The translations under genes and the position numbers were made by a program. Below are positions 367 to 26,387 of a DNA stretch of 26,705 nucleotides, one piece after another. The notes beneath the pieces are model-generated. The model worked only from the letters and a program-made list of their open reading frames with translations, was not told the DNA's origin and searched no databases. Each line of letters opens with the position of its first letter. The first letter of the stretch is position 1. The DNA is taken from positions 1 to 26,705 of the IMG/VR virus record IMGVR_UViG_3300014656_000110. One strand, written 5' to 3'. The DNA is from a virus. Its lineage: Duplodnaviria > Caudoviricetes.

Positions 367-1476
367 ATGATCACTTGTAAAGTATGTGGAATTCAAGCCC
401 ATGACCTTAAACCCCATTTTATTGGGGGCCGGAAGCCAGAATGTACTTTGACCTTGGGAGAATACACCACAAAATACCCCGGGGAACCTTTAGCATCAGA
501 ACTTTTCCAGAAAAAGTTGGATGAACTGAGAATTAAAAAGAAAATCAGTGGTAGCTTGACTGTAAAAAAATATTCCATTGCAAAAACTTTTGGTTTTGCC
601 CTTGGAAAAGACAGTGACGTTAATGGTTTTGTTGAACGTACCCAAGCAGTCCCAGATATCGATCCCGAATATAAATTTCCGGCGGAAGCCACAAAAATTG
701 TTCTTCTTGGGCTGCAAACAAACCGCCCAACAATGGTTCATGGACCAACCGGATCAGGAAAATCCACGCTTATTGAGCAAATTGCGGCCCGGATTAATTA
801 TCCCGTTATGCGGGTCAATCACCACAAAGACATGTATTCTTATGACATCGTTGGGCAGAAAAAAATAGAAGATGGCAACACGGCTTTCGAATATGGACCG
901 GCAGCCATCGCAATGAGGCAACCCATGATCCTTGTAATGGATGAATGGGATGCAACCAACCCGGAAGTAGCTTTATTGTATCAATCGCTCTTAGAACGCA
1001 AATCTGATGGTTCTCGCCTGGGCAGTTTAGTTCTGACTGCAAACAGCGGGGAACGGTTAGATTCAGACCCAAACTTCCGAATTGTGGCAACTTCAAACAC
1101 AACCGGTTTGGGGGATGACAAAGGTTATTACCAGGGAACAGAAGTCCAAAACATTGCCTTTGTTTCCCGTTTTCTGCTCAGGGTGAAATTGGATTATATG
1201 GAACAAAAAGATGAAAGGGAACTTTTAAAAAAGAAGTTCCCCGGGTTGTCTGAAGAGGAAGCAACGGGTTTTTCAAAAGTTGCCAACCTTATCCGGAAAC
1301 GTTTTGAAGCCGGTGAACTGAATGTACCTTATTCCATCCGAGATCTCATCAATTGGGTTGATCTTTACCTTATGATTGGGGATGCCGGAAAGGCAATGCA
1401 ATTTTCTTGTACTTCTATCCTTCCATATACGGATGAAAAAGTCATCTCTGAGATTGTTCAAAGAACATTTAGTTAA
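367..1476 (+). CDS. MoxR-clade (CobS/CbbQ-like) AAA+ ATPase with N-terminal Zn-finger-like segment
   Basis: Walker A GPTGSGKS, Walker B VMDEWD, FRIVATSN, SRF Arg finger, SIRDL sensor; N-terminal CKVC...H...H; SD AAGGAG. Confidence 0.9.
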   Translation: MITCKVCGIQAHDLKPHFIGGRKPECTLTLGEYTTKYPGEPLASELFQKKLDELRIKKKISGSLTVKKYSIAKTFGFALGKDSDVNGFVERTQAVPDIDPEYKFPAEATKIVLLGLQTNRPTMVHGPTGSGKSTLIEQIAARINYPVMRVNHHKDMYSYDIVGQKKIEDGNTAFEYGPAAIAMRQPMILVMDEWDATNPEVALLYQSLLERKSDGSRLGSLVLTANSGERLDSDPNFRIVATSNTTGLGDDKGYYQGTEVQNIAFVSRFLLRVKLDYMEQKDERELLKKKFPGLSEEEATGFSKVANLIRKRFEAGELNVPYSIRDLINWVDLYLMIGDAGKAMQFSCTSILPYTDEKVISEIVQRTFS

Positions 1477-1488
1477 TCGGTTAAAATA

Positions 1489-1512
1489 AAAGGGGTCACA
1501 CGATTCCCCTTT
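1489..1512 (+). other. Intergenic hairpin
   Basis: AAAGGGG / CCCCTTT inverted repeat between the AAA+ and vWA genes. Confidence 0.5.
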
Positions 1513-1532
1513 ATCATTTTGGAGGGACATGA

Positions 1533-3533
1533 ATGCTTATCGCACGCACCGTATTGGAAACTGTGGCAAAGGCTTTGACTGATGCCCATGATGTAAAAGT
1601 AGTTTTTTACGGAGACAGATGTGAAACAGATGGTCGGGTGATCACTTTGCCTTCTCTGCCAGATAAAATCCCGGCAGAAATCATTTCGATGCTCCGGGGA
1701 TACCTCGACCATGAAGTTGGACATATTGCCTTTACTGATTTTAAAACTTACCGAAAATTACCGAAAAACGAGACTGAACGTTTCGCCCTGAACGCCATTG
1801 AAGATGTTCGGATTGAGTTGGAAATGGAGAGTATTTGGAAAGGTTGCAAAGTTAATTTTGAAAGAGCGTTTGACATGGTTTCTGAAGATCTTACCACCGG
1901 TAAAAAGAAAGATGCTTGGGAGAAACATGATGCTGTAACCAAAGTTTTCATCCTTTTTATAGCAGTTGCCCGTTACGGCTTTGATGTCCCCCTCCTTGTC
2001 GAATATAGCCCTGAATATAGCCCAATAATAGATGAACTTTCCGATGAAATTGAAGCGTCCCATGAACTGGGAGACACCGAAGAGGCTTATGAAATGGCCG
2101 TAAGGGTATTGGAAAAAATAGAACATATTGTCAGAGAACATTCCCGTCATCCTCTTTTAATACCAAAGAAAAAGAAAACGGGAGAAGGTGACATGTCGGC
2201 CGAAGAGGCAGCCGGGGCCAGTGGTGGTGGCAGTGGTGGTGGCAGTGGTACTGGCAAACCACCGAAAGATGGCAGTAAAGGTCCAAAAGATCACTCTGTG
2301 GCTACTGAGGAAAAAGGCTCTTCCTCTGGTGTTGCCCCGGGAACTGAAACGGATGAAGAAACCTATGAAATGGGGGAAGATATTGATGATGACATTGAAA
2401 CAGAAGAAGGAGGTAGTGATGACACTGGAACAGACGAGGAAGAGGTGGAAGAAGTGGAAGAAATGGAATCTGAAACAGAAAAAGGAGAAGATAAAAAATC
2501 TGGCGGAGAAGCAGGAGAATCGGAGGATAGCGAAGATAAAGGCTCGGACGAAGAGGAACCAGCTATCGATGAAGAGATCCTTGAACGACTCCGAGAATCT
2601 TTAAAAGACGATGCTTCAAAAGTTCTGCCCGATGTTAGTGGAAAAATCAAAATAAAGACTTCCTCATTGAGAGGGTACCGGGTTTTAACATCGGAAAAGG
2701 ACACTTTCACAGAATGGCCAGGGACAAAACTCGGCCAGGACGAATATGAAATATTCAAAAAATCCTGTAATGGCATTGTCGGTGTTTTAAAGAACCAACT
2801 TAACCGGCTTTTAATGTCAAAGAAAAGGGCCTCTTGGATGGGAGGGAAACAACATGGGGTTGTGAATCCTGCCACACTCCACATGGCTGTTCAACGAACT
2901 TCTAACAAGCTCTATAGAGTCCGGATGGAAGGTAAAAAGATCAATAGCGCTGTTTCCATTTTGGTTGATTTATCAGGTTCCATGGGTGGTGAACGGATGC
3001 GTAAAGCCAATGAAACGGTTGTATTGATGACTGAAACTCTTCATTTGGCCGGCATCCCTTTTGAAATACTTGGTTTCACAGGTGACAAATTAGTATCCGG
3101 GGCATCGGGGGAAGGAGCCCACCATTTTGACCGTTACGGATCGCTGGACATGTACTATTTTAAACTCTTCAGTGAACCTTTGAACCAAATCACAAAAAAA
3201 CGGATTGGGTCCATGAGGGCTAAATCACAAAATTATGATGGTGAGAGTGTTCGGTTTGCGGCTATTCGTCTTTTGAAACGACCAGAGCGTAAAAAGGTTC
3301 TATTTGTCCTTTCTGATGGGGAACCATCTGCCTGTCACTGTAAAAGTAGTTCTTTATCTCCACATTTAAAACAAGTGTGTTCAGAATTGCAAAATTTACA
3401 AGATTTTTATCTTTGTGGTTTTGGCATTCAAACCGATGCACCAAAGCGATTTTACCGGAATCATGTCCTTGTCAATGATCTTAAAGAACTACCAAAAGTT
3501 CTGATGGAAAATCTATATCGTGCTCTTATATAA
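1533..3533 (+). CDS. CobT-like vWA protein: N-terminal HExxH domain, Gly/acidic linker, C-terminal vWA
   Basis: YLDHEVGH and NAIEDVRIE; long D/E-rich linker; MIDAS DLSGS and LSDGEP; adjacent to the MoxR ATPase; SD GGAGG. Confidence 0.88.
   Translation: MLIARTVLETVAKALTDAHDVKVVFYGDRCETDGRVITLPSLPDKIPAEIISMLRGYLDHEVGHIAFTDFKTYRKLPKNETERFALNAIEDVRIELEMESIWKGCKVNFERAFDMVSEDLTTGKKKDAWEKHDAVTKVFILFIAVARYGFDVPLLVEYSPEYSPIIDELSDEIEASHELGDTEEAYEMAVRVLEKIEHIVREHSRHPLLIPKKKKTGEGDMSAEEAAGASGGGSGGGSGTGKPPKDGSKGPKDHSVATEEKGSSSGVAPGTETDEETYEMGEDIDDDIETEEGGSDDTGTDEEEVEEVEEMESETEKGEDKKSGGEAGESEDSEDKGSDEEEPAIDEEILERLRESLKDDASKVLPDVSGKIKIKTSSLRGYRVLTSEKDTFTEWPGTKLGQDEYEIFKKSCNGIVGVLKNQLNRLLMSKKRASWMGGKQHGVVNPATLHMAVQRTSNKLYRVRMEGKKINSAVSILVDLSGSMGGERMRKANETVVLMTETLHLAGIPFEILGFTGDKLVSGASGEGAHHFDRYGSLDMYYFKLFSEPLNQITKKRIGSMRAKSQNYDGESVRFAAIRLLKRPERKKVLFVLSDGEPSACHCKSSSLSPHLKQVCSELQNLQDFYLCGFGIQTDAPKRFYRNHVLVNDLKELPKVLMENLYRALI
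2219..2254 (+). repeat. 12-bp in-frame tandem repeat, 3 copies (CAGTGGTGGTGG)
   Basis: Two exact copies and one with two mismatches, encoding SGGG-SGGG-SGTG. Confidence 0.8.
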
Positions 3534-3672: not shown

Positions 3673-4389
3673 ATGACCGACACAAAAAATAATCCTGACT
3701 GTTTTGGACTGTTGTATGACAAAGTTGCTTGCTCCAATTGTTTCGTGGCAACTGATTGTCAAAAACAATCGGTAGGTGATACTCCCGCCCCCTCAAACTT
3801 ACACACCCCCGAAACAGATGACCTGGAAGCGTTGGCGGCTGCCGAACTGGAAGCTGAACAGGAAGCCGAACAGGCCCTTGAAGTTGAAGCCGTTACCAAA
3901 GCCGAAAAACCGGAAAAGACCATACAGGCCCCGCCCAAGAAAAAGGTTCCAACGGTTAAAAAGCCCGCCCCTAAGAAAAAATTATCTTTCATTAACCGCA
4001 AACCTTTTAAAGAACTGATGGCAGAAGGAAAGATAACCTCATTGGTGGATGAAACGAACAATAAAACCTATATGGAAGTTGTCGTTGGTGATGGGGTCGA
4101 AGTTTATAAATCTCAAATTTACCATGAAAAAAATCTTAAACAATTCGCCGCCACCGGTGCCAACCCCTTTAAACCTGAATCAATCCCCGGAAAAGCATTT
4201 GAATTTCTCCAGAAAGGAGAAGAGATTTCATTCAGTGACACCTTCAATTATTTAAAAGGTACTCATCCCGACAAAAATGACACAACCTTAATGAGTCGGG
4301 CAGCCGATGTCCTTGCCGGTGCTTCTTTTTTCGGGATTGCAATAATCACCCGAAAAGAGGGCCGTCAGAAATTTTTCAAGATTCAATAA
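3673..4389 (+). CDS. Hypothetical protein with N-terminal 4-Cys CFG module, charged linker and possible helical DNA-binding C-terminus
   Basis: PDCFG-x7-CSNC-x4-DC; E/A-rich then K/P-rich linker; SD AAGGA. The C-terminal fold is a guess. Confidence 0.75.
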   Translation: MTDTKNNPDCFGLLYDKVACSNCFVATDCQKQSVGDTPAPSNLHTPETDDLEALAAAELEAEQEAEQALEVEAVTKAEKPEKTIQAPPKKKVPTVKKPAPKKKLSFINRKPFKELMAEGKITSLVDETNNKTYMEVVVGDGVEVYKSQIYHEKNLKQFAATGANPFKPESIPGKAFEFLQKGEEISFSDTFNYLKGTHPDKNDTTLMSRAADVLAGASFFGIAIITRKEGRQKFFKIQ

Positions 4390-4448: not shown

Positions 4449-7400
4449 GTGAGTTTTGTTCATTTACACTGCCATTCAAGCCATTCTTTACTTGACGGTT
4501 TGGGGAATCCCGCCGAGTGGGTTGACACTGCCAAGAAGAAAGGAATGACCGCACTGGCCTTGTCAGATCATGGATCATGCAGTTCAGCATTGGCCTTTTA
4601 TAAAGCTGCAAAAGAGAAAGGCATTACTCCGATTGTCGGCACTGAGTTTTATGTTAACGACGATCCAGCCTTTAGACCAGAAAAAAAGAATGAACGCCCA
4701 CCCCGTTTTCACATGACCGTTTTGGCAAAAAATTGGAATGGGTTACAATCAATTTTTAAACAATCTGCTATTGCTAATCAACAATTTTATTACAAACCGG
4801 TATTGTCATTAAAACAGTGTGAAAACTTCAATGATTGTGTTGTTATGACGGGTTGCGCCGTTGGAATCCTCTCACACCCATATTATAAAAAAATAGTCAC
4901 CAAATTACATGATATTTATGGTGGCGACTTTTATATTGAGATCATGCCCCACTGGTTGGAAATTCAGAAGATAGTCAATGAACGGGCCTTTGTAATCTGC
5001 CATGAACTTGGAATCAGTCCCGTGGCAACAAATGATTGCCATTACCCAAACGCTGAAGACACTTTGACCCATGATATTCTATTGGCCATCCAGACGAACC
5101 GGAAACCTAATGATACAAAGATGTTTTCTTTTATTGGTAGTGAAGAACCAATGGACGGTCTTTATTTAAAAAACACCTCCGAAATGATTCATTCTTTTAA
5201 ACCGTGGGTACAAAATGGGACTTTTGATCTGGCCTTCGTGAACAAATCTTTTATGGCCACCGTTGAGATCGCAAAAAAATGTTCTGGATTGGAAATTCCA
5301 CAACTCAATTTTAACCTTCCCTCAATCCCCTTATTAAAAGGGGCAACACCGGCTGAAGAATCAAATTTTCTGGTCAAGAAGGTTATGCAAGGATGGACAG
5401 AAATTTTGCCTACGGGTATTGACCCCGCCGTATACCGAAAACGCCTTCGGCATGAATTAAAGGTCATCTCTAAAATCGGAGCCGTGCGATACTTCTTAAT
5501 TGTCTGGGATATCGTCCGTGAGGCCAAGGAAAGGGATGTTCTTTGTGGTTTTGGTCGTGGGTCTGCCGGTGGGTCGTTGGTTGCTTATCTGCTCCGTATC
5601 GTTGGTTTAGACCCTTTAAAACATGAATTGTATTTTGAACGTTTTCTCCGTGAGGATCGGATTGATATGCCTGATATTGATCTTGATTTTGCCGGTAAGG
5701 ATCGAGATGTCGTTATCCAATATATCAAAGATACTTACGGTGAAGAAAATGTTTGCCAGATTAGTACGTCATCCATCATGCACGGAAAAACAGCTTTCCG
5801 TGATGTAGCCAGGGTGTATGGTGTCGAATTTAATACCGCCATCATGCTTTCTAAAAGGATCGATAATGATCTTTCTTTGGAAGAGAATTTCAATGATGAT
5901 TCCGTCTTGTCTGATTTTCGGATTAAAAACCCGGAAATTGTTCGCCATGCTACACGCCTGGATGGGCAATTGAGATCAAAAGGACTCCATGCCGGCGGCG
6001 TTATTATTTCAGAAGATGGTTTTGATGATCGTGGAGTTCTGGAATATCGGAAAAAGGCTTTTACAATTAATTGGAATATGGAAGAGGTCGAAAATTTTGG
6101 GTTATTGAAAGTTGATATTTTGGGCTTGAGTAATCTTTCCGTATTAAATGACACCTCAAGGTTGGTAAAAAAACGGACTGGTAAGGGTATTGATTATTTT
6201 AAAATTGAACCAAATGATCCAAAAGTTTTGGCATTGTTTTCCGATGGTTTTACGGCTGGATTTTTCCAGTTTGAGTCTACCGGAATCACTGGCCTATGTA
6301 AGCGTTTAGCCCCAATTACCAATTTTGAAACTTTGGTACATGTCAATGCTTTGTACCGTCCAGGGCCGTTGGATTCCGGTATGGTTGAGTCGTATGTTCG
6401 CCGATATCGGAAAGAGGAAGGGATTTCATATAATCACCCTTCGGAGACTGAGATTACAAGGGAAACCTTGGGGATGCCAATTTTTCAAGAGCAGATCATG
6501 GCATATTTTGTCCGTTTGGCCGGGTTCTCATGGCCTGAAGCGGATACCATGAGAAAGATCATTGCAAAGTCCAAGGGTATCGAAAAACTGGAAGAGAAAC
6601 GCCCCATTTTTGTAAAAGGATGTGAAGAGGTTTCCGGGATCAAAGAGGATACCGCCAATATCATCTATGATCAGATTGTTAAGTTCGGAGAATACGGGTT
6701 CAATAAATCTCATTCTGCCGATTATGGATTGATTTCATATCTTACCGCCTGGGCAAAACTTCATTATCCAATGGAGTTCATATGTTCATTACTCCGATCA
6801 GTTACCGATGAGAGTGACCAGACAGACAAATACATCAAAGAGTTAAACCGTTTGGGCGGGAAGGTCCTTGGGCCGGATATTAACCGGTCTGAAGAAACTT
6901 TCACCTCAGATGGTGATGATATTTTGGTCGGTTTTTCTTCCGTGAAAGGAGTTGGCCCCACGGCTGCCCAAAAGATAGTCGAAGGTCGGGAAAAAGTCGG
7001 GGAGTTCATATCCTTTGAACATTTCATGGAAAATACCGAACGCCGTACCGTTAATAAGAGAGTCGTCGAAGCATTGGCCAAGGCGGGAGCGTTCAATTCT
7101 ATTTGTAAAAATGCCAAATGGATTATTGATTGGTATCCAGCTTGGGTAAAAGGTGGAAAAACCGCTTCTGAAATACCACACCCGGGGGCCTATACCGATT
7201 TTGATTCCCGGGTGAAAGACTCCATGAAAATTGAATGTGTTCCCGGTATATTCACTGGTGATGACATTGAAGTGGAAGCACAAATGGAAATCGATAAGGT
7301 TGTTTTGGAAATGCTTCAAGGGCAAATCAGGGAATGTGATCAATGCGAACTGAGATCCGCCTCTGGGCCTGTGCCGTTCCACTTCGGGCGCGACAATCAA

Positions 7401-7856
7401 ATCCTTGTTGTATCGCAAAAGGTAAATAGCCAAGAAGAATCAGCCGACCGCCCCATGGTCGGGAAAATTGGCGCCCAGGTTGAGGAGATTTTTAGGGAAC
7501 GGCTCGGTTTAACACCGGGGAAGTTCCTCATGGCGAATATGTTCCAATGTCGTCCTCCAGGCGACAAACTGGAAAAGGAGGTTATGGAAAGAGTAGAATG
7601 TGCAAAAATTTGGCTCAGCAAATTAATTAAGGCAACAAAACCAGGAGTTATCTTCGCAATGGGTGGGGCAGCTCACACATTTTTCACCAAAAAAACGTTC
7701 GGAATTAATGCGGCCAACGGCACAACCTTATGGATGCCTGAATATCAGTGTTTAGTGGTCTTCGCCATCCACCCGGGCCAGTTATACTTTGATTCCACCG
7801 GTGAAAAGAAAGATATGTTTGTTAAAGCAGTTGATAAATTGAAAAACTATTTATAA
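4449..7856 (+). CDS. dnaE: DNA polymerase III alpha-like (C family) fused to a C-terminal family-4 uracil-DNA-glycosylase-like domain
   Basis: PHP motifs HLHCHS, SDHG, NDCHY; GRGSAGGSLVAY, FERFL, PDIDLDF, KVDILGL, FNKSH; HhH VKGVG. From about 7300: CDQC, RPMVGKIG, NMFQCRPP, KPGVIFAMG, HPGQL. GTG start with SD AAGGAG. Confidence 0.95.
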   Translation: MSFVHLHCHSSHSLLDGLGNPAEWVDTAKKKGMTALALSDHGSCSSALAFYKAAKEKGITPIVGTEFYVNDDPAFRPEKKNERPPRFHMTVLAKNWNGLQSIFKQSAIANQQFYYKPVLSLKQCENFNDCVVMTGCAVGILSHPYYKKIVTKLHDIYGGDFYIEIMPHWLEIQKIVNERAFVICHELGISPVATNDCHYPNAEDTLTHDILLAIQTNRKPNDTKMFSFIGSEEPMDGLYLKNTSEMIHSFKPWVQNGTFDLAFVNKSFMATVEIAKKCSGLEIPQLNFNLPSIPLLKGATPAEESNFLVKKVMQGWTEILPTGIDPAVYRKRLRHELKVISKIGAVRYFLIVWDIVREAKERDVLCGFGRGSAGGSLVAYLLRIVGLDPLKHELYFERFLREDRIDMPDIDLDFAGKDRDVVIQYIKDTYGEENVCQISTSSIMHGKTAFRDVARVYGVEFNTAIMLSKRIDNDLSLEENFNDDSVLSDFRIKNPEIVRHATRLDGQLRSKGLHAGGVIISEDGFDDRGVLEYRKKAFTINWNMEEVENFGLLKVDILGLSNLSVLNDTSRLVKKRTGKGIDYFKIEPNDPKVLALFSDGFTAGFFQFESTGITGLCKRLAPITNFETLVHVNALYRPGPLDSGMVESYVRRYRKEEGISYNHPSETEITRETLGMPIFQEQIMAYFVRLAGFSWPEADTMRKIIAKSKGIEKLEEKRPIFVKGCEEVSGIKEDTANIIYDQIVKFGEYGFNKSHSADYGLISYLTAWAKLHYPMEFICSLLRSVTDESDQTDKYIKELNRLGGKVLGPDINRSEETFTSDGDDILVGFSSVKGVGPTAAQKIVEGREKVGEFISFEHFMENTERRTVNKRVVEALAKAGAFNSICKNAKWIIDWYPAWVKGGKTASEIPHPGAYTDFDSRVKDSMKIECVPGIFTGDDIEVEAQMEIDKVVLEMLQGQIRECDQCELRSASGPVPFHFGRDNQILVVSQKVNSQEESADRPMVGKIGAQVEEIFRERLGLTPGKFLMANMFQCRPPGDKLEKEVMERVECAKIWLSKLIKATKPGVIFAMGGAAHTFFTKKTFGINAANGTTLWMPEYQCLVVFAIHPGQLYFDSTGEKKDMFVKAVDKLKNYL

Positions 7857-7879: not shown

Positions 7880-8629
7880 ATGGCGAATTTGAGAGAAACA
7901 CGCAAACGGATGGATGAGCTTGGATTGACATGGATAAAAACAGATACCGTTGAGGATATGCTGCCCCAGATTGCAGGGTCGGAGTGCGGGATTGAAGAGA
8001 CTGTAAAAACCGAATTGGAATTGGACGAAGCCAAAGTAGAAGCAGAACAGGCCGAACTGAAAAAGACAAGGGAACCCGCCCCGGCCATGCCTAAAGGACT
8101 TGGCAAACCAAAACCGGCCAGCCAGGATCTTGATGGATCATCTGAAACGGTCGCCGGATTGCTTGCCTCAACCGAGGGTATGACCATCTCCGGGCTTATC
8201 GATGGATTGACAATCACTGAAGCCGATTTGACAACCGATTTCATGAAACAACCTGCCCTTCATGCCCGGGTCGTCGTTCTGGCTGCCACGGCCAATGGCA
8301 AGATGCTGTCTGCAAAATCACGCAGGAGAGTGGTCGAGGGTGAATTGTATAAGAAACATAAGGAAAAATTGATTGAAGGGGGAATCGCAAAGCCCACAGA
8401 AAAAGCCATTGGAGCTGAGGTGGATACCGATCCTGCATGGATCGCTTCCGAAGATTATTATGCCAGTACCACCGAGGCATACGGTTTGTTCAAAGGGTTG
8501 TGCAAGTCCTATGAAGACCGAAAAGATATGCTGGTACAGATGGGGGCCGGACAACGGCAGGAAAAGGACCAAACTGGTTTTTCCATGCATGGAAAGGCCA
8601 TGGATGTTATCGGCAAAAAAACTGCTTAA
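7880..8629 (+). CDS. UvsY-like recombination mediator (putative) with N-terminal extension
   Basis: Helical C-terminal half DFMKQPAL...KPTEKAI...YEDRKDMLVQMGA resembles the UvsY-like family of large phages; sits next to SSB and RecA. Confidence 0.6.
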   Translation: MANLRETRKRMDELGLTWIKTDTVEDMLPQIAGSECGIEETVKTELELDEAKVEAEQAELKKTREPAPAMPKGLGKPKPASQDLDGSSETVAGLLASTEGMTISGLIDGLTITEADLTTDFMKQPALHARVVVLAATANGKMLSAKSRRRVVEGELYKKHKEKLIEGGIAKPTEKAIGAEVDTDPAWIASEDYYASTTEAYGLFKGLCKSYEDRKDMLVQMGAGQRQEKDQTGFSMHGKAMDVIGKKTA

Positions 8630-8660
8630 TTATTAAAATCTGAATATATAACCAACCTAC

Positions 8661-8696
8661 CGGAGTGCATAAATGTCCGGTTTTTTATGCACTCCG
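8661..8696 (+). other. Intergenic hairpin
   Basis: Perfect 13-bp stem CGGAGTGCATAAA / TTTATGCACTCCG. Confidence 0.7.
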
Positions 8697-8700
8697 CCTA

Positions 8701-8715
8701 ACAGTAAATATTTAC
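8701..8715 (+). promoter_or_regulatory. Conserved motif copy 3 (ACAGTAAATATTTAC)
   Basis: Perfect 12-bp palindrome GTAAATATTTAC at 8704-8715, upstream of the SSB gene. Confidence 0.75.
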
Positions 8716-8759
8716 TACCTTATATTATTTTTTAATCACACTTGAAAGGAGAATCAACA

Positions 8760-9779
8760 ATGGCTCTTAATCTCGCAAAAATCCAAGACAATCGTGCAAA
8801 AGCAAAAGAAGAAAAATCCAGACGTTCTGCAAATTTCTTTTCCATGCAAAATGGTCGCAACAACATCCGTATTCTACCCCCTTGGGAAGGATCAGATGAT
8901 TTTTCCAGGCCCATGGGAAAACATTGGAACCTTGGGCCAGAAGGAAAACAGAGTGCTTTTTGCCTCAAACAATGTGCGGCACTTCCATGTCCGATCTGTG
9001 AAGAAATTGACAAAATCTGGAAAACGAAACCCGACGATACCACCAAAGAATGGCTGAAGAATGTTAGTGCTTCTCAACGGTATTATATCAACCTGATCGA
9101 CCTGAACGACAAAGAAAAAGGTGTCCAGATTGGGGAACTCCCGAAAACAGTCCTTGAAGAGATTTGGAATATCATGGTCGATGAAGACACCGGTTTGGGC
9201 GACATTACTCATTGGGATAAAGGCTTTGATTTGATCATTGAGAAAACTGGTTTAGGCCTGTCCACCCGTTACAGTGTTCGAGCAAAAAGGGCTCCCTCTA
9301 AAATTGAACGCCATTTGTATGAAGAGGGAATGGTGAACTTGGAAGCCTTCGTCCGGACAGAATCTTATACAGATCTGAGATTACTCTGGGAAGGAAAACT
9401 CCCCACAGAAACCACTGCCCTGCCGGAACATATTGGTCCAATGACGGCCAAAGCTGCTCCTGAGCCTAAAATTATTGACGTTGTTTCCACGGATGTTACG
9501 GATCTCGTTGATTCCGGTTTACCCGCCTGTTTCGGCGGTTTCAATGAAACACTGGCCAAGTGCCTCGATTGTCCTGAGCAAGATGATTGTGAAGAGAAAA
9601 TGGAAGCTGAACGGGGAGCTGCCAATGAAGCGGAAGCGGCGGCATCTCTCACAAAGAAGGCCACTGAAGTTGCCCCGCCAGTTACCACAGCACCGGCACC
9701 GGCCACTGCAACCCCCGAATCCATGGATGAAATTCAAAGTGACCTAATGGCTGAAATGGAAAGGGCCATTAAATCTTAA
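8760..9779 (+). CDS. T4 gp32-like single-stranded DNA-binding protein with C-terminal 4-Cys CFG module
   Basis: IRILPP, H...C...CPICE Zn site, RYYINLID, GFDLIIEK; then PACFG-x8-CLDC-x4-DC. Start moved to the ATG at 8760 behind SD AAGGAG. Confidence 0.8.
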   Translation: MALNLAKIQDNRAKAKEEKSRRSANFFSMQNGRNNIRILPPWEGSDDFSRPMGKHWNLGPEGKQSAFCLKQCAALPCPICEEIDKIWKTKPDDTTKEWLKNVSASQRYYINLIDLNDKEKGVQIGELPKTVLEEIWNIMVDEDTGLGDITHWDKGFDLIIEKTGLGLSTRYSVRAKRAPSKIERHLYEEGMVNLEAFVRTESYTDLRLLWEGKLPTETTALPEHIGPMTAKAAPEPKIIDVVSTDVTDLVDSGLPACFGGFNETLAKCLDCPEQDDCEEKMEAERGAANEAEAAASLTKKATEVAPPVTTAPAPATATPESMDEIQSDLMAEMERAIKS

Positions 9780-9795
9780 CCCATAACTATAAAGA

Positions 9796-9817
9796 CCCCC
9801 AGATACTCTCCTGGGGG
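9796..9817 (+). other. Intergenic hairpin
   Basis: CCCCCAG / CTGGGGG stem. Confidence 0.55.
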
Positions 9818-9839
9818 CCTTACTCATAAAGGAGTATGA

Positions 9840-10772
9840 ATGTCGAATATTGTGATTGTAGATGGAAATAATCTGGTTTATGCCTCAAATTGTGCGATGA
9901 GACTCCACACATCGGATGACTTTCCAACACAGGCCATAAAAGGCTTTTTCAATTCGCTCCGTTCCTATGCCAAAAAGTTCCAACCAGATAAAATTTTTGT
10001 TGTTTGGGATGGCGGAAAATCAAAAGCAAGAATGGAACTTTGTCCAGATTACAAGGCCAACCGGGATGTAGAAAAAACCCCTCAAGACCAAATGGTTTAT
10101 GAAGAATTTCTCATGCAAATTCCGTTGATCAAAAAAGCGATCCTCGATCTGGGGATTTACAGTTGCTCCGGCACTGGTGTGGAGGGGGATGATCTTGCCG
10201 GGATGCTCGCAAGAATGGCCGAAAAACTCGGTAAGAAAGCCATTATCTGCTCCAGCGATAAGGATTTTTTCCAATTAGTGAATGACGCTATCAGCGTTTA
10301 CAATATTATTAACCGAGGAAAGAAAGAACGTCTTACCACCTTGGAAAATATGGAAGAACTCCACGGGCTACCACCGGAACAATGGCTTGAATTCAAAGCC
10401 ATGCTCGGTGATAAATCGGATAATATCCTGGGTATCAATGGTATCGGTGAAGTGACCGGTATCAACATCATGAAAAGGTTTGGTTCTATCGATGGTCTTG
10501 CTTTGGACCAAGCTTCAGAAACACCGACAAAGATCGGCAAACGGGAACAAAGGCTCCTTGAAAATGCCAACCGAGAACTTGTCGAACGTAACATTAAAAT
10601 GATGGACCTTCATAATCCCACCGGAAATTTTTCGACTGTCAAGGTTGTTTGTCAGGAACCAAATTTCCCGTCTCTTAGGGAATTTTTTAAAGAGTATGAA
10701 CTAAAATCATTTTATCTGGAATTCAATTCATGGGTATCAGATTTCAATTCAATAAGAACCGTGGAGACATAA
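9840..10772 (+). CDS. 5'-3' exonuclease / flap endonuclease (PolI N-terminal, T4 RNase H type)
   Basis: VDGNN, VWDGG, YKANR, EGDD, SSDKDF, GDKSDNILGINGIG. Confidence 0.93.
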   Translation: MSNIVIVDGNNLVYASNCAMRLHTSDDFPTQAIKGFFNSLRSYAKKFQPDKIFVVWDGGKSKARMELCPDYKANRDVEKTPQDQMVYEEFLMQIPLIKKAILDLGIYSCSGTGVEGDDLAGMLARMAEKLGKKAIICSSDKDFFQLVNDAISVYNIINRGKKERLTTLENMEELHGLPPEQWLEFKAMLGDKSDNILGINGIGEVTGINIMKRFGSIDGLALDQASETPTKIGKREQRLLENANRELVERNIKMMDLHNPTGNFSTVKVVCQEPNFPSLREFFKEYELKSFYLEFNSWVSDFNSIRTVET

Positions 10773-10777
10773 AAAGA

Positions 10778-11890
10778 ATGACAAGAAAACCGGCTATAAA
10801 AACAGATATTAACCTGGATGCCCTAATTAAAGATGTAAAAAATGCTTTAGGTAAACAGTTAACCGTTTTAAAAGATGTTTCCTTCTGGGTACCAACTGGA
10901 ATTCCTCGAATGGATCTTGCCCTCGGTGGTGGGATTCCAGCAGGAAAGCTCACCACATTGATTGGGAAAAAATCAGTTGGGAAATCAACCCTGACAATTC
11001 ATATTCTTTCCCGTATTCAGGCCATGTCTGGTCTTGCATTGGGTTTGGATGCTGAAAGAGCCAATCTGAAGTCCCGGTGTCTTGCCCAAGGAATTGATAT
11101 GGACCGGTATATTGGGGCGGAACCGGAATCATTGGATTCTTTTGAACGGGAAAATTTTAAGACAGGAAAAGCCGAAAAAGTAAAAGGGGCCTTTCAAATC
11201 ATGGAAGATGTCTTGAAAGTCGTTTATAAGCAATCCCCAGATCAGCTCGTCGGCGTTGTCCTCGATTCCGTTGCAGGATCTTCAGTTGCCTCTGAGATTG
11301 AAGCTGATTATGGTAAGGCCGGAATGGGAAAACACGCCCGTGTTTTGTCCCAGGCGTTCCGGAAAATCATGCCAATTGTGGGGGAAATGAACACCTGTTT
11401 TCTTTTGGTTAACCAGCTTAAAGAAAAGATCGGCGTTGTTTATGGCAGTCCCACCACATATATCGGGAAAAATCCAATTGATTTCAGTTCTGCCATTACA
11501 TTGGAAATGGTAAGTGGTGGTAATTTTCCCGATAAATCAACCGATCCCGAAGGCATTACCACAAAAATCTGGGTGTCAAAAAACAAAGTCTTCAAGCCTT
11601 TTACCAAGTTCAGTTACGTCACATGGTTTGATCGTGGAATTGATACTCTTTGGGAAACCATCGATTTCTTGAACAAAGAGTGTAAAGCCTTTGGGGCCTC
11701 ACCCGGTTATCTGGAATGGGACGGCAAAAAACGCCGTATGGCTGAGCTTTATGATATCGCCCTGGAAGAACCTGAAATTTCTGCAAAATTTGTAACAATG
11801 GCAAAGGAGGCGGTTGATGGAAAACTTAAAAATTATAAAGATTCGATGGTTAATCTTGGTTCTACGGTATCTAAACCGGCTGTTGCCTGA
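10778..11890 (+). CDS. recA: RecA/UvsX-like recombinase
   Basis: PTGIPRMDLALGGGIP, Walker A GKKSVGKST, LDSVA, NQLKEKIG, KNKV. Start at ATG 10778 preferred (upstream GGAG, no overlap with the previous gene). Confidence 0.92.
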   Translation: MTRKPAIKTDINLDALIKDVKNALGKQLTVLKDVSFWVPTGIPRMDLALGGGIPAGKLTTLIGKKSVGKSTLTIHILSRIQAMSGLALGLDAERANLKSRCLAQGIDMDRYIGAEPESLDSFERENFKTGKAEKVKGAFQIMEDVLKVVYKQSPDQLVGVVLDSVAGSSVASEIEADYGKAGMGKHARVLSQAFRKIMPIVGEMNTCFLLVNQLKEKIGVVYGSPTTYIGKNPIDFSSAITLEMVSGGNFPDKSTDPEGITTKIWVSKNKVFKPFTKFSYVTWFDRGIDTLWETIDFLNKECKAFGASPGYLEWDGKKRRMAELYDIALEEPEISAKFVTMAKEAVDGKLKNYKDSMVNLGSTVSKPAVA

Positions 11891-14057: not shown

Positions 14058-15988
14058 AATTAATTGATACAACAATAGAAAATTTTATGTCCTTCGGCCC
14101 GGAAGTAACCCAGTCGTGGGAAGATATCGGTTTGGTGCTTTTTGAGGGCGTTAATAACGTGGCTAAATCGGCCAGTTCCAACGGTTCCGGAAAAACCAAC
14201 CTCATGGAATCCGTTATCTGGGCTTTTTACGGCCAAACAACCAAAGGGGTTGGTGTCGATGATGTGGTTAATGACATTGCCAAAAAGGGGTGTAAGGTCA
14301 CAAACCGTTTGGGTGATCCCGTCACTGGCAATCACTGGACAATCACCCGAACCCGGAAGGATGAAGAACTTGGAAACAGCCTGATCTTCAAACAAATCAA
14401 ACCGGATGGTGAAATTGTCGATCTGTCCGGTGTGGATATGACCGCAACCCAAGACAATATCAGCAATTTTCTTGGGGGTGGGTTCACCTTGTTTTGTAAT
14501 TCCACTTATTTTTCCCAGAACAATATTAAACCGTTTTCATTGTTTACTGACAAACAAATCAAGGATGCCCTGGTCGAAGCCTTGGATTTAAACCGGTTTT
14601 TTGTTGCCCTTGGCCATGTCCGGACAGACTTGAAAGCAGTCCGGACTGAATTTGATATGGTTACCGGCAAACTTGCCAGGGTTGAAGAGGAAAGGACCGA
14701 GATATCAAACCGTCTTCATGATTATGAAACCCAAGAAGTGGGGTTTAAATCGAAAAAGAGATGTGAAATTGAGGAACTGAATAAAAAGTCTGATGTTTTC
14801 AAAAAGAGAATCGAAGCCGCAGAACTTTATAAGACACGCCGCGGACAACTTCTCAAAGAAATTGAAGAAAAAATGGCAACAACCACCGAATCCACAGCAG
14901 CAGCCGACTGGGAAAAGGTTCTTGAAAGTTCCAAACCCCTGGCAACCAATATCAGAATTCTTGAAACCAAATACGCCGATATTCATCGTGATTTCACCGT
15001 TAAAAAGACTGAAGCACTTAATATTAACAGACGGGTCGGAACTGGTTGCAGCGAATGTGGCAAAGAAATCACAAAAGAAGATGTTGGTTCCGTATTGGAA
15101 GCCACAAATGCAATCGCTGAAAAGCTCCGTAAGAAGGTTGAGGACATGGATTTGTTGATAACAAGGGCTAAGGGAGCCAATTCTGTTTATAACGAGCGTA
15201 TCGAAGAATTAGAGGTCGAACTGGAAGTAATTGCTTCTGTCCGTTCTGAGATCGAAAAACATCAAAAGGATTTGGAAGAAATTAAATATCATATTTCCAT
15301 AATCCCCGGCCTTGTTCTGGAAATGGAAGAGGTAGTAACAGCCGTTGAATTAAAAGAAAAAGAAGAGAGTCCCTTTTCCGGTTTGATCCACAAAGAAAAA
15401 ACCCTGCTTGAAGAGAGCCATCCCCGTGAGACTGCTCTAAAACGGTTACAGAACACAAAAAAAGATGAGATTGAACAATTGGAATTCTTGGAATTCATGT
15501 TTGGTTATTCTGGAATTCCAACATTCCTCCTCGATTCGGTTGTCCCGTTTCTCAATGAACGTTCTAACCATTATGCCACCCTGGTTTGTGAAGGCGAAGT
15601 TCAACTTTCTTTTTCCACCACAAGCAGAACAAAGACCGGGAAAATCAAAGAGAAGTTTGCCATTGATGTGATTCATACTTCCGGGGCCAAAAAATATAAA
15701 GGGATCTCAGGGGGAGAACGAAAAAGAGCCGATATTTGCATTGCTCAAGCCATGCAGGATCTTTGCCGGTCATATGGGAAGAATCCCCTTGATATCGTGT
15801 TTTATGATGAGCCTTTTGAACATCTGGATTCAACCGGAACGGCCGGAGTATCTGAAATGCTTTCCGCAATTCAAAAAGAACTCGGAACAGTGGCGGTTGT
15901 CACCCATGACGATGAAATGAAATCTGCTTTTACAAATACAATTACTGTTGTCAAAGACACCGATGGTTATAGCCGTTTAGTGGCATAA
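14054..15988 (+). CDS. sbcC: Rad50/SbcC/gp46-like ABC ATPase
   Basis: IENFMSF, NGSGKT, Q-loop FSQ, coiled coil with CSEC zinc hook, signature ISGGE, FYDE, VTH. Confidence 0.93.
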   Translation: MKLIDTTIENFMSFGPEVTQSWEDIGLVLFEGVNNVAKSASSNGSGKTNLMESVIWAFYGQTTKGVGVDDVVNDIAKKGCKVTNRLGDPVTGNHWTITRTRKDEELGNSLIFKQIKPDGEIVDLSGVDMTATQDNISNFLGGGFTLFCNSTYFSQNNIKPFSLFTDKQIKDALVEALDLNRFFVALGHVRTDLKAVRTEFDMVTGKLARVEEERTEISNRLHDYETQEVGFKSKKRCEIEELNKKSDVFKKRIEAAELYKTRRGQLLKEIEEKMATTTESTAAADWEKVLESSKPLATNIRILETKYADIHRDFTVKKTEALNINRRVGTGCSECGKEITKEDVGSVLEATNAIAEKLRKKVEDMDLLITRAKGANSVYNERIEELEVELEVIASVRSEIEKHQKDLEEIKYHISIIPGLVLEMEEVVTAVELKEKEESPFSGLIHKEKTLLEESHPRETALKRLQNTKKDEIEQLEFLEFMFGYSGIPTFLLDSVVPFLNERSNHYATLVCEGEVQLSFSTTSRTKTGKIKEKFAIDVIHTSGAKKYKGISGGERKRADICIAQAMQDLCRSYGKNPLDIVFYDEPFEHLDSTGTAGVSEMLSAIQKELGTVAVVTHDDEMKSAFTNTITVVKDTDGYSRLVA

Positions 15989-15997
15989 AGGGGATAC

Positions 15998-16291
15998 ATG
16001 GAACAAACTTTTAAAATCAATGAGAATGGTCTTATTTCAACGGTCCAGGGGGAGATTATAAAGCTCAAGGGGTATTCAAAATTTAAGTTTTTCGCCCACA
16101 AGACAAAAGACATTGGTTGGTCAATAAGGGAGTTAACCACTGGGCATTGTGCTCATTCAGGGAACAGCCGGAACCTAACGGAACTGAAAGCGCGGGCCAG
16201 AGATTACCTGAAAGAACAAACAGGCGGCAAAGTTAAGGCTTTACAGGAAGAAATTGCCAAATATGAAATTTTGAACAAAGAGGAAGAATAG
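15998..16291 (+). CDS. Hypothetical phage protein
   Basis: SD AAGGGA; operonic; WSIRELTTG segment is typical of small phage proteins. Confidence 0.7.
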   Translation: MEQTFKINENGLISTVQGEIIKLKGYSKFKFFAHKTKDIGWSIRELTTGHCAHSGNSRNLTELKARARDYLKEQTGGKVKALQEEIAKYEILNKEEE

Positions 16292-16293
16292 AT

Positions 16294-16389
16294 ATGGATA
16301 AACGGCTCAGCAAGGGCAAGAATTCGACAAAGTTTTCATTTACCCAGAATGTGGCCACAACCCAAAAAAAAGGGGAAAGAATAATATGA
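16294..16389 (+). CDS. Possible 31-aa peptide (MDKRLSKGKNSTKFSFTQNVATTQKKGERII)
   Basis: Fills the gap exactly; upstream GAGGA; stop overlaps the thyX start as ATGA. Not in the ORF track. Confidence 0.3.
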   Translation: MDKRLSKGKNSTKFSFTQNVATTQKKGERII

Positions 16390-17336
16390 AAATAATTGAA
16401 CAATCCCATAAAATTTTGTCCTATGAAGACCCCTTAAAATTGATCGAAGCTGCTGGCCGGACCTGTTACAAATCTGAAGATAAAACCACTGAAGATTCGG
16501 CTGCCCGGTTTGTGAAGATGATCGTCAAGTCTGGTCATCTTTCTGTATTGGAGCATGCTTCTATCTGTTTTATGGTTGGTAGTGATGCCTTGTGGTTTTT
16601 CAGGGAATCCGTCCACTCCAAATATCTGAATATCACCCACGATGATCAACCGTTGGTTTCAGGCAATCTCAGGACTTGGTTGGAATTTTTCAAAACCGAA
16701 TGTGGTCGGGAGAGGTTGTGGGTTCCTATTGATGTATGCCAGATTGCCCAATATCTGCACAAAGAGTATCCCATGATTTTTCCTGAATACTATAAACAGG
16801 TTCCGGGGCAGGCCAGTTTAATGACGGAATCTGAAATGACAAACCAGAAAAAGCTCATTCATGCAACCAGGACTGTCCGGGTAATCACCGACAGAGGGAT
16901 ACAACAGGAAATCACAAGACATAGACCTTGGGCGTATTCCATCGAATCAACCAGATATGTGAAGTATGACGATGAAATAAAGTTTATCAAACCCGTCTGG
17001 GGCTCTGATGACCTTTTGATTGAAGAAACTCAACTATCAAGGGCTTTAGACCCATTAACTTTGGCCGAAAGGGTATGGTTGAATAAAATGGTGTCGGATG
17101 AAGACGATTATAGATTTCTTCTGAAAAACGGTTGGAAACCAGAACAAGCCAGATCCATTCTTCCCCTTTCACTGGCTGGTGAGATTGTCATGACTGCTAC
17201 CTTGGGAGAATGGGCTCATATGCTCAAACAGAGAACAGGCAAGGCAGCACACCCACAGATAGTTGCCCTTATGAAACCCTTACTCAAAGAACTTCAAAGT
17301 AATATTTCCGTCGTATTTGATGATATCGAGAGTTAA
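16386..17336 (+). CDS. thyX: Flavin-dependent thymidylate synthase with internal insertion
   Basis: AGRTCYKS, GHLSVLEH, RHR-x7-S (RHRPWAYSIESTRY), EQARSILP, AHPQI. Confidence 0.93.
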   Translation: MKIIEQSHKILSYEDPLKLIEAAGRTCYKSEDKTTEDSAARFVKMIVKSGHLSVLEHASICFMVGSDALWFFRESVHSKYLNITHDDQPLVSGNLRTWLEFFKTECGRERLWVPIDVCQIAQYLHKEYPMIFPEYYKQVPGQASLMTESEMTNQKKLIHATRTVRVITDRGIQQEITRHRPWAYSIESTRYVKYDDEIKFIKPVWGSDDLLIEETQLSRALDPLTLAERVWLNKMVSDEDDYRFLLKNGWKPEQARSILPLSLAGEIVMTATLGEWAHMLKQRTGKAAHPQIVALMKPLLKELQSNISVVFDDIES

Positions 17337-25031: not shown

Positions 25032-25483
25032 TGAGTGAAGTAAGAAGTAACGAATTGGTAAAAATTGAAGACTTGGCCGTGATGCTTGGTTGTTCAATAA
25101 ATACCCTTTATAAAAACTGGAAACAATACCCGCATATATTTGTTGGTGTGGGCAAAAACTCAAGGTCGGCAAGATTTTTCCCGAATGATGTTTTCCAATT
25201 TTTAATTAACCGGGACTATACCTTAAAGCAAAATGCCCTATTACAACAAAAGGCTCGATTCTTGGACCGGTCAGGTGAAAAAAACATTCACTGTGGAAAA
25301 CTCCAATTTTCTGAAAGGCCAAAAAAATTGGACCCAAAAGAAAAACGACGAAGAGAAGTGGCTTTTCAAAAAAGAGAAAAATTACTTCGAGGATGCCCGG
25401 GCAGCGACAGTGTGGGAAAGCGACGAACTGGAGGAAGTTCTGATATTCCTCAACAATCCCTTGAGCAACTCTTGGACTTTTAA
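25031..25483 (+). CDS. xis: Excisionase-like HTH protein; start uncertain (TTG 25055 is plausible); tail overlaps int
   Basis: LVKIEDLAVMLGCSINTLYKNW...ARF MerR/Xis-type HTH and wing, directly upstream of the integrase. Confidence 0.7.
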   Translation: MSEVRSNELVKIEDLAVMLGCSINTLYKNWKQYPHIFVGVGKNSRSARFFPNDVFQFLINRDYTLKQNALLQQKARFLDRSGEKNIHCGKLQFSERPKKLDPKEKRRREVAFQKREKLLRGCPGSDSVGKRRTGGSSDIPQQSLEQLLDF

Positions 25484-26387
25484 AAATGTTGCTCTCATAT
25501 ACCTTGATGAAGTAGAACTCAAATCCACCGGCCCCAACACTTTCAATGATAAAAAGAGGGTAATCAAAGAACTCCTCTCGCATTGGATGGCAGATAAAAC
25601 CCTCCCCATAAAAAAAGATGACATTGATCCATACCTTAAAGAAGTTTTTCTTTGCCCAGGCAAAGGCGGGAAAACCGCAAACCGCCGTTTAAGAGAACTA
25701 AAAACTCTTTTTAATTGGATGATCAAAAACAAAAAATATAATATTACCGAAAACCCCTGCAAACACATCTCGAATTTTCCTGCTAAATCCTTCAAAAAAT
25801 ACGTTCCTCCAAGAGAAGATATTTTTTCCATAATGGGAATTGGCAATCCGATGGAACAGGATCTCACCACTTTTATGTATCATACCCTTGCCAGATCCGG
25901 TGAAGTTAGACGACTAAAAAAAGAGCATTGCCATTTTCAGATCGGGATGGTGACCCTTTATACCAGGAAACGAAAAGATGGGGCTTTGGAAGGGGACAAT
26001 ATTCCATTGAATAAAGTTTCCTCAGAAATTTTGAGGCGCCGGTGTGACACCGTTGATGACGAATATATTTTCCCAGGGGTATATGGTGGTAAGATGCCCA
26101 GGCCAACTATGGATAAAATGATGCCTCGATTATGCAAACAGGTAAACGATTTGATCATAGCAAGCAACAGAAGAGAAAAAAATGAAAAAGATTATTTGCC
26201 GGCCATGAAAAATTTTTCATTTCATGCTATAAGGCATTACGTCACCTCATATTTATATATGGAATGTGGATACATGGTGGGAGAATTACAACGATTATTA
26301 AGGCACAAAAATGCCACAACCACAGATGGTTATTTGAAGTCAATTTGCGATATGGAATTTACCAGAGGACTTGAAATTTTAACATGA
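25233..26387 (+). CDS. int: Tyrosine recombinase / phage integrase
   Basis: ARSGE (Arg), KRK (Lys), FHAIRH (HxxR), LRH...TTDGY (His, Tyr); NRRLRELKTLFNW and NPC in the core-binding domain. Confidence 0.95.
   Translation: MPYYNKRLDSWTGQVKKTFTVENSNFLKGQKNWTQKKNDEEKWLFKKEKNYFEDARAATVWESDELEEVLIFLNNPLSNSWTFKNVALIYLDEVELKSTGPNTFNDKKRVIKELLSHWMADKTLPIKKDDIDPYLKEVFLCPGKGGKTANRRLRELKTLFNWMIKNKKYNITENPCKHISNFPAKSFKKYVPPREDIFSIMGIGNPMEQDLTTFMYHTLARSGEVRRLKKEHCHFQIGMVTLYTRKRKDGALEGDNIPLNKVSSEILRRRCDTVDDEYIFPGVYGGKMPRPTMDKMMPRLCKQVNDLIIASNRREKNEKDYLPAMKNFSFHAIRHYVTSYLYMECGYMVGELQRLLRHKNATTTDGYLKSICDMEFTRGLEILT

Follow-up and report, generated by a model that had tools for sequence, protein, structure and literature searches.

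The DNA analysed here, referred to as the window, is the whole 26,705-nucleotide stretch of the IMG/VR record IMGVR_UViG_3300014656_000110, a virus of the Caudoviricetes. It encodes a C-family DNA polymerase (DnaE) in which the helix-hairpin-helix (HhH) domain is followed, within the same open frame, by a domain that has the fold of the uracil-DNA glycosylases (UDGs) of family 4. The gene and its parts, with amino acid (aa) positions of the protein, are as follows.

4449..7856, + strand: dnaE-udg fusion gene, C-family DNA polymerase with a C-terminal UDG-fold domain, 1135 aa in one open frame
4461..5288, + strand: PHP domain, aa 5 to about 280 (Pfam PHP match at aa 5-168)
5367..6125, + strand: Pol III alpha catalytic domain, aa 307-559 (Pfam DNA_pol3_alpha), with PDIDLDF (D411, D413) and KVD (D556)
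6132..6629, + strand: fingers domain, aa 562-727 (Pfam)
6861..7109, + strand: HhH domain, aa 805-887 (Pfam HHH_6)
7110..7289, + strand: linker between HhH and UDG, aa 888-947 (alignment with canonical DnaEs)
7290..7853, + strand: family-4 UDG-fold domain, aa 948-1135 (PDB sequence matches and predicted fold)
7413..7427, + strand: degenerate motif A, SQKVN instead of GE[AG]PG, with Q990 at the conserved Glu (alignment)
7770..7790, + strand: motif B, HPGQLYF, with His1108 present and F1114 at the position of the DNA-binding Arg (alignment)

The polymerase core and the junction

The DnaE core of the protein scores 797 bits against TIGR00594 (cut-off 434). The PDIDLDF and KVD motifs are present and are invariant among the aligned orthologs; D411, D413 and D556 correspond to the catalytic aspartates of E. 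coli DnaE. Nine positions of the PHP domain, H7, H9, D16, H41, E66, H88, C136, D196 and H198, the metal ligands, all match the site of M. tuberculosis DnaE1, and all nine are kept in 74 of 108 fusions. On the strength of these residues the PHP domain of the window protein is predicted to give built-in proofreading.

Similarity to DnaE stops where the OB fold would start. PF01336 has no match in the window protein, the OB profile has none in the linker, and the clamp motif Qxx[LMIF]F is absent from the whole protein. When six canonical DnaEs are aligned with it, the linker is seen to retain the helices that follow the HhH domain, but not the segment of ~25 residues that bears the internal clamp motif. 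Between the HhH and UDG domains the motif was seen in 0 of 114 fusions; it is present in 35 of 70 canonical DnaEs, which is also the measure of the pattern, as odd clamp motifs could escape it.

A preliminary description of this DNA had recognised a single reading frame with PHP, catalytic and HhH regions followed by a UDG tail, an absent OB fold and clamp motif, and an intact PHP metal site. The frame, the Pfam matches, the PDB alignment and the predicted fold bear out the first of these points, the Pfam, OB profile and motif searches the second, and the comparison with DnaE1 the third. The junction might also be an assembly or frameshift artefact, or the tail a neutral remnant, for which the metagenomic origin of the window alone speaks. 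The same junction and the same five domains are found in all 8 of the other proteins retrieved with aa 860-1135 (41-73% identity there), and because these orthologs are independent the junction is real. With 115 full-length fusions, occurrence in cultured phages and a ratio of non-synonymous to synonymous differences (pN/pS) of 0.18 as well, the independent assemblies refute an artefact, and we give it practically no weight.

Fold, motifs and constraint of the UDG domain

The UDG family PF03167 matches aa 982-1132 above its cut-off (E 5.3e-11), and the last 196 residues match family-4 UDGs in the PDB (1ui0, E 3.6e-15; 1vk2, E 4.9e-14). In the AlphaFold model aa 948-1135 superpose on the T. maritima UDG 1l9g with Z 18.4 and a root-mean-square deviation of 2.5 over 178 aligned residues. 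The full-length model, built from 8 sequences, is poor in the core (mean pLDDT 59.6, pTM 0.44) and was used for the UDG fold only. When aligned with family-4 UDGs, SQKVN lies opposite GEGPG and PMVG opposite PFVG, with M1003 in the place of the stacking Phe; the Gly, Glu, Pro and Gly of motif A and the stacking Phe are all changed. Of motif B, with the consensus HPS(S/A)(L/V)(L/V)R, the HP is retained and the Arg is replaced by Phe. C963, C966, C1034 and C1051, together with N1030 and H1108, align with their family-4 counterparts. The score against TIGR00758 is 56.6 bits, well short of the cut-off of 125.3. According to PMC10359453, family-4 enzymes conserve the motif-A Glu (E52), and mutating it in the UdgX H109S enzyme lowers kcat/Km about 75-fold, from 0.382 to 0.005. 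From the sequence, the UDG domain of the window protein is likely to be catalytically dead.

Among the 21 Glu-less members of the clade to which the window protein belongs, none has the motif-A Glu (position 990) and all have the four Cys, which are predicted from the alignment to bind a 4Fe-4S cluster. Residue 996 is acidic in 21 of 21. The pocket behaves differently from the scaffold: N1030 is kept in 43%, H1108 in 38% and F1003 in 33% of the 21, position 1108 being Ser or Thr in 62%. Close orthologs show the same, with N1030 replaced by Thr or Pro in 3 of 8 aligned and H1108 by Ser in 2 of 8. The replacements of motif A are not shared within the clade (SQK, GQF, SDF, TDS and MPN). The domain as a whole is as constrained as the polymerase core: it is 74% identical to that of the ortholog at locus L001, where the PHP, palm and fingers regions are 73-74% identical, and its pN/pS of 0.18 compares with 0.23-0.24 for the core, in this one pair, window versus L001, with synonymous sites saturated. 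That the pocket drifts inside a fixed scaffold suggests a role other than catalysis, one independent of reading uracil.

The UDG fold of the C-terminus is thus as first described, and so are the loss of motif A and of the stacking Phe and the presence of the four Cys. The Asn and His, put forward at the same time as retained hallmarks, are indeed present in the window protein but are not kept among its close orthologs.

These data bear on two other roles for the domain. It could have ceased to cut but still sense uracil, 5-hydroxymethyluracil or abasic sites, stalling or steering the polymerase, as had been suggested initially. N1030 and H1108 of the window protein are two uracil-contacting residues, the acidic residue 996 is common to the clade, and one relative has a divergent thymidylate-synthase-like gene. 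Against this, the pocket residues drift, both across the 21 clade members and in the 8 close orthologs, while the scaffold is fixed, and the window encodes ThyX; neither the 27 open reading frames (ORFs) of the window nor the 133 ORFs scanned around the prophage of the relative G001 gave a match to a family of dUTPases, dCMP deaminases or base-modifying kinases. The suggestion does not fit this pattern, and a sensor is improbable. The second possibility, that weak or altered glycosylase activity persists through a rewired active site, draws on the pocket Asn, the His and the four Cys of the window protein and on its sister P0170, which keeps AEAPG as well as the Asn and the His; other UDG families work without the motif-A Glu. 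But with all five motif-A and stacking residues changed, and with replacements that, not being shared, fit relaxed rather than redirected selection, residual activity seems more improbable still.

Distribution and history of the fusion

Relatives were sought with the HhH and UDG parts among representatives at 50% identity, and 150 matches were listed. Pfam, applied to 38 long representatives, showed the UDG family in 36, and P0010 and P0056 were classed as fusions separately. Together with the 120 best core relatives, these fusions form a set that holds 115 full-length C-terminal fusions, the outcome of the domain-architecture search for DnaE plus UDG that had been recommended, as well as 4 fusions with the UDG at the N-terminus of the DnaE and 73 DnaEs that lack a UDG. 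At least 80% of the query is covered in 30 of 225 matches to phage records, including SSU5, nickie, RHEph10 (in whose record the protein is annotated as 'uracil-DNA glycosylase-like'), ANB28 and Cyrano, and in 895 of 1098 matches to plasmid records. The viral contigs scanned contained no close relatives of the C-terminal 276 aa, and a metagenome scan gave the window's own contig only.

The active site is intact (GE.PG, Phe, Asn, His and four Cys) in 25 of the 115 full-length fusions, nearly so in 17 and degenerate in 73, the last class following a rule of our own, with a few borderline cases. A divergent OB fold precedes the UDG in 28 fusions with a long linker, 22 of them intact or nearly so (HHalign 92.9%, E 3.7e-7), from which we infer that the UDG joined behind the OB fold and that the OB fold was lost later. 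Because relatives keep an intact active site, some with the OB fold in front, the UDG most likely arrived as a working glycosylase and was not recruited as a dead tether.

A FastTree of 144 rows, comprising all 119 fusions and 25 of the 73 non-fused rows, leaves the monophyly of all fusions unsettled. For a subset of 35 rows, with six fusions of intact site as the root, the polymerase and UDG trees agree, and the fusion was inherited vertically. The window and SSU5-type proteins fall in one clade (29 rows versus 6 intact-site outgroup rows; support 100/100 and 98/95), and the nearest relatives of the window's own clade are P0170 and P0013, both with the Glu. A single clade of all dead forms is rejected by the approximately unbiased (AU) test (p 1e-67), so the Glu was lost at least two times, separately in the window and SSU5 lineages. 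The window lineage retains the PHP ligands and the Cys; the SSU5 lineage, including SSU5, nickie, RHEph10 and ANB28, no longer has the PHP site and lacks one to four of the Cys.

Two further observations concern the polymerases of this set. In P0068, P0071, P0109 and P0110 an intact or nearly intact family-4 UDG is attached to the N-terminus of a DnaE that retains its OB fold, a second fusion geometry that is like that of SPO1 PolA. Inteins, some with an HNH endonuclease, interrupt the DnaE orthologs P0004, P0010 and P0169, and also GyrB and a UvsW-like helicase (L015:1315-3648, 14573-17113).

Clamps, clamp loaders and OB subunits

Clamp genes were surveyed at 86 loci, the best 80 of at least 521 viral DnaE loci plus six others, and counts were limited to the 43 whose upstream sequence reaches 8 kb or more, which leaves aside the window and L001. 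A phage beta-clamp family (phrog_947; HHalign 94.8% to the host clamp) occurs in the neighbourhood of 15 of 21 loci with an intact UDG, of 7 of 8 with no UDG and of 0 of 14 Glu-less loci. When whole records were searched, none of the 8 Glu-less genomes that are complete or nearly so gave a beta clamp, and G001 gave the host copy only. A Fisher test of clamp and UDG co-evolution (p 1.8e-5) was discarded as invalid, there being one independent pair.

The four clamp-carrying phage DnaEs examined (L043, L047, L058 and L092; about 900 aa) end just after the HhH domain, with neither OB fold nor UDG. At L104:9983-13699, in the CobT-carrying, clamp-less lineage, a DnaE has OB-like sequence in the place of the UDG, and no beta clamp was found in this complete 113-kb record. 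Both fit a C-terminal grip on DNA being needed where no clamp is used.

Checks for a separate OB subunit, clamp and loader had been proposed. No separate OB subunit was found, the 238-aa gene upstream of dnaE giving no OB call, and no beta clamp was seen in the Glu-less relatives, as above. The CobS-like AAA protein was considered as a clamp loader and rejected, since its match to the CobS-like family (E 6.6e-61) is far better than that to the loader family (E 1.8e-8).

Elsewhere in the survey, a divergent phage beta clamp of 330-370 aa lies upstream of dnaE in L031, L035, L054, L078 and 22 more viral loci, and G015 has two tandem beta-clamp copies. Phages with clamp-carrying DnaE loci (the L058, L078, L092, L057 and L073 regions) often encode FolE, QueD, QueC and radical SAM proteins, families of the 7-deazaguanine pathway; one cluster includes a TET-associated glycosyltransferase.

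A proposed role for the UDG domain

We favour, at about even chances, a reading in which the UDG domain is a non-catalytic grip on DNA, a substitute for the missing OB fold and clamp contact in a clamp-poor replicase. A working Fe-S UDG would have been joined to a phage DnaE, behind its OB fold, allowing replication-coupled uracil removal as in the A-family UDG polymerases, and the OB fold and clamp motif would next have been deleted. Catalysis would then have been lost at least two times in the lineage with the CobS/CobT genes, where a beta-clamp gene was not seen either. Stabilised by its predicted 4Fe-4S cluster, the domain would pack behind the HhH domain and hold template or product DNA, giving higher processivity. 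The processivity tether of the preliminary description therefore survives as the best reading, on the UDG fold, the lost motif A, the constraint and the absence of a beta-clamp gene from the Glu-less genomes searched, but not in the sense of a domain recruited as a dead tether.

Several points weigh against a DNA grip. The position of the motif-B Arg, which according to PMC10359453 binds the DNA backbone in family 4 (UdgX), is Phe or Tyr in the clade. The domain is not unusually basic, with a median net charge of +4 (SSU5 clade 0; intact forms +4.5), and the full-length model, at its pTM, leaves the position of the domain relative to DNA unplaced. The clamp association is a single independent contrast, two near-complete intact-UDG genomes are also without a clamp in the same search, and the clamp-positive controls were in the profile, so that they do not gauge its sensitivity to divergent clamps. 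The group rejected in the AU test was named after the 144-row tree had been viewed.

A further such point is a 192-aa PCNA-like candidate, found at L015:598-1173 (-), which equals L001:1421-1999, and at L027:3629-4204 (Atlas 0.90). It sits about 1.4-1.7 kb upstream of the CobS-like gene and by eye resembles one clamp domain with an insertion; PCNA families are on under half of the members of its Atlas features. It is unconfirmed, with no Pfam, PHROGs, PDB or phage match, no match to the beta-clamp profile and an AlphaFold pLDDT of 29. It has only 2 database relatives plus the one in L027, and was not seen at the corresponding position in L032 or in 27 of the 29 records searched. In line with the earlier proposal of a self-contained, clamp-independent replicase, 8 of 8 Glu-less genomes gave no beta clamp, but it is unproven that the replicase is self-contained, as two close relatives carry this candidate and the window is a 26.7-kb fragment.

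Some of the same evidence would suit a dead UDG that serves as a structural or docking module in place of the tau-binding C-terminal domain (CTD), tying the polymerase to the helicase, primase, single-stranded DNA-binding protein (SSB) or a phage clamp, with DNA binding minor. Scaffold and Cys are fixed while the DNA-facing Arg is lost and the charge is unremarkable, the ancestral fusion occupies the CTD position behind the OB fold, and the PCNA-like candidate could be such a partner. The model shows, in addition, a weak fold match of aa 979-1135 to 3sxu_B (Z 6.1), from an E. coli SSB-Pol III interface structure; this chain is the Pol III psi subunit, a non-catalytic replisome adaptor. Against docking, no partner emerged, the PCNA-like candidate being as sparsely distributed as described, and a polymerase that has lost both its OB fold and its clamp motif would still have to contact DNA. 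Docking is the main rival to a DNA grip, though we regard it as rather unlikely.

If the UDG domain is the DNA grip that we favour, it may tentatively be supposed, though with less confidence, that temperate phages and phage-plasmids (the window clade, the SSU5/pHCM2 type, nickie and RHEph10) repeatedly made a glycosylase into a processivity module, copying genomes of 100-140 kb clamp-free, and that the intact-site relatives are the first uracil-excising C-family polymerases.

Genomic context

Other genes in the window are listed below.

367..3533, + strand: CobS-like AAA ATPase and CobT-like VWA genes (Pfam and family matches)
7880..11890, + strand: downstream replication and recombination genes, namely a phrog_2058 protein, a gp32-like SSB, a 5'-3' exonuclease and RecA/UvsX
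7880-8629: the phrog_2058 gene that immediately follows dnaE, retained at 72 of 86 loci
16386..17336, + strand: ThyX thymidylate synthase
25233..26387, + strand: tyrosine integrase

The window also encodes SbcDC, RuvC and ribonucleotide reductase, and contains no tRNA genes. The tyrosine integrase indicates a temperate phage, of which DnaE-UDG is likely to be the replicase. As ThyX is encoded, the phage would be expected to make dTMP, and nothing in the sequence suggests that its DNA is uracil-substituted. The lineage is marked by the CobT-like gene, which is present at 18 Glu-less loci, 1 locus without UDG and 0 intact-UDG loci. In SSU5, nickie, RHEph10 and ANB28 the genes around dnaE follow the same order as in the window. 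The phrog_2058 protein may resemble UvsY, as judged by eye. The 238-aa protein encoded upstream of dnaE (3673-4389) ends in a winged-helix-like part (resemblance at TM <0.5); its N-terminus shares a CFG..C..C...C motif with the C-terminal part of the SSB (8742-9779). Between the genes for ribonucleotide reductase and dNMP kinase, a phrog_8902 protein (23395-24042) has no Pfam match; we take it to be Nudix-like in look.

A 72% ortholog of the fusion lies in the Desulfobacterium chromosome G001, within a region of ~135 kb that starts at an integrase near 4.506 Mb and ends at about 4.64 Mb. Part of it is syntenic with the window, and in this region 133 ORFs of at least 95 aa were scanned with Pfam and 76 of those with PHROGs. 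This prophage encodes DnaB, DnaG, a UvsW-like helicase, NAD ligase, GyrB, terminase, portal, capsid, tail sheath and baseplate. A separate DnaE, that of the host itself, is encoded at 5.14 Mb, the fusion being in the prophage at 4.53 Mb, and the one beta clamp of the host lies outside the prophage. The relatives are integrated, contractile-tailed phages of Desulfobacterales-type hosts. A divergent ThyA-like gene lies at the far end of the G001 region (L019:19009-19827), and the place that corresponds to thyX of the window holds no ThyX. A 1005-aa prophage protein (L016:16759-19773), encoded among the head genes and beside an InPase-family gene, has a PARP-like ADP-ribosyltransferase domain.

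Comparison with known systems

A DnaE in which the OB fold and CTD are replaced by an archaeal-type UDG (PF03167) was reported in Yersinia pestis and Salmonella by Timinskas et al. 2014 (PMC3919608). The architecture was thus known by 2014, and Aravind and Koonin 2000, cited there for the domain, may hold an earlier report. With SSU5, nickie, RHEph10 and 895 plasmid records sharing it, the novelty that had been entertained for the window protein falls away. What the window adds is one more lineage, inactivated independently and with the PHP site and the four Cys still in place; newly added by the survey are the intact sites in 25 of 115 fusions, the OB fold kept in some and a loss of the Glu separate from that of the SSU5 lineage. 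We found no experimental study of DnaE-UDG, in a literature search that fell short of most subscription papers and supplements. The accessible parts of PMC7824862, PMC4889955 and PMC12926913, the last without mention of UDG in its main text, add nothing on the fusion.

C-family replicases count as clamp-dependent, and Kazlauskas and Venclovas 2011 (PMC3201878), who proposed UDG as a processivity factor for SPO1 and T5, left the C-terminal parts of the viral versions unassigned. The fusions form a natural series, from an intact UDG with OB fold, through intact without OB fold and dead with four Cys (the window protein), to dead without Cys (SSU5). With this series it could be tested whether processivity comes from a dead UDG fold, as proposed for the A-family enzymes of N4, SPO1 and T5, and whether replication by a DnaE is possible with no clamp, in an architecture that hundreds of enterobacterial phage-plasmids carry.

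The closest known systems are the DnaEX-UDG proteins of SSU5, nickie, RHEph10, ANB28 and Cyrano, which have the same PHP-Pol3-HhH-UDG order, the OB fold and CTD replaced and a degenerate motif A. The SSU5 type shares the gene neighbourhood and the larger clade on both trees, and DnaEX-UDG is an extra copy beside the normal host DnaE, as is seen in G001. Identity to the window protein over HhH and UDG is only 24-27%, the PHP site and Cys that SSU5, nickie, RHEph10 and ANB28 have lost are kept in the window protein, and the Glu was lost separately. Canonical DnaE1, on the other hand, has an OB fold, a CTD and an internal beta-clamp motif after HhH, none of which the profiles and pattern used detect in the window protein.

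With the family-4 UDGs of T. thermophilus (1ui0) and T. maritima (1l9g/1vk2) the window domain shares the fold, the four Cys, the Asn and the HP, and it differs in being fused and in motif A, the stacking Phe and the motif-B Arg. Poxvirus D4, a family-1 UDG, is a separate and enzymatically active subunit and serves a B-family polymerase. In the D4-A20 processivity factor (PMC3201878) a UDG fold is likewise associated with a viral polymerase (8q3r_D, Z 7.9 to the window domain). N4-like PolA carries an inactive family-4 UDG, for which Czernecki et al. 2023 (cluster 17, PMC10201439) propose the role of a processivity module; it has in common with the window protein a phage polymerase joined to an inactivated family-4 UDG, but is an A-family enzyme of unrelated polymerase fold with an N-terminal fusion. 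The SPO1-like and SP15-like UDG-PolA enzymes (YerA41, phiLo; PDB 9qhs) are also polymerase-UDG fusions, with a fold match of Z 12.6 to the window domain. These enzymes are active, with E53 and H178, in phages with modified T, whereas the window protein has no Glu and its phage has ThyX. According to Missoury et al. 2026 (PMC13697223), phiLo and YerA41 PolA excise template dU ahead of synthesis; the SPO1-like and SP15-like enzymes are a model for the intact-site DnaE-UDG relatives.

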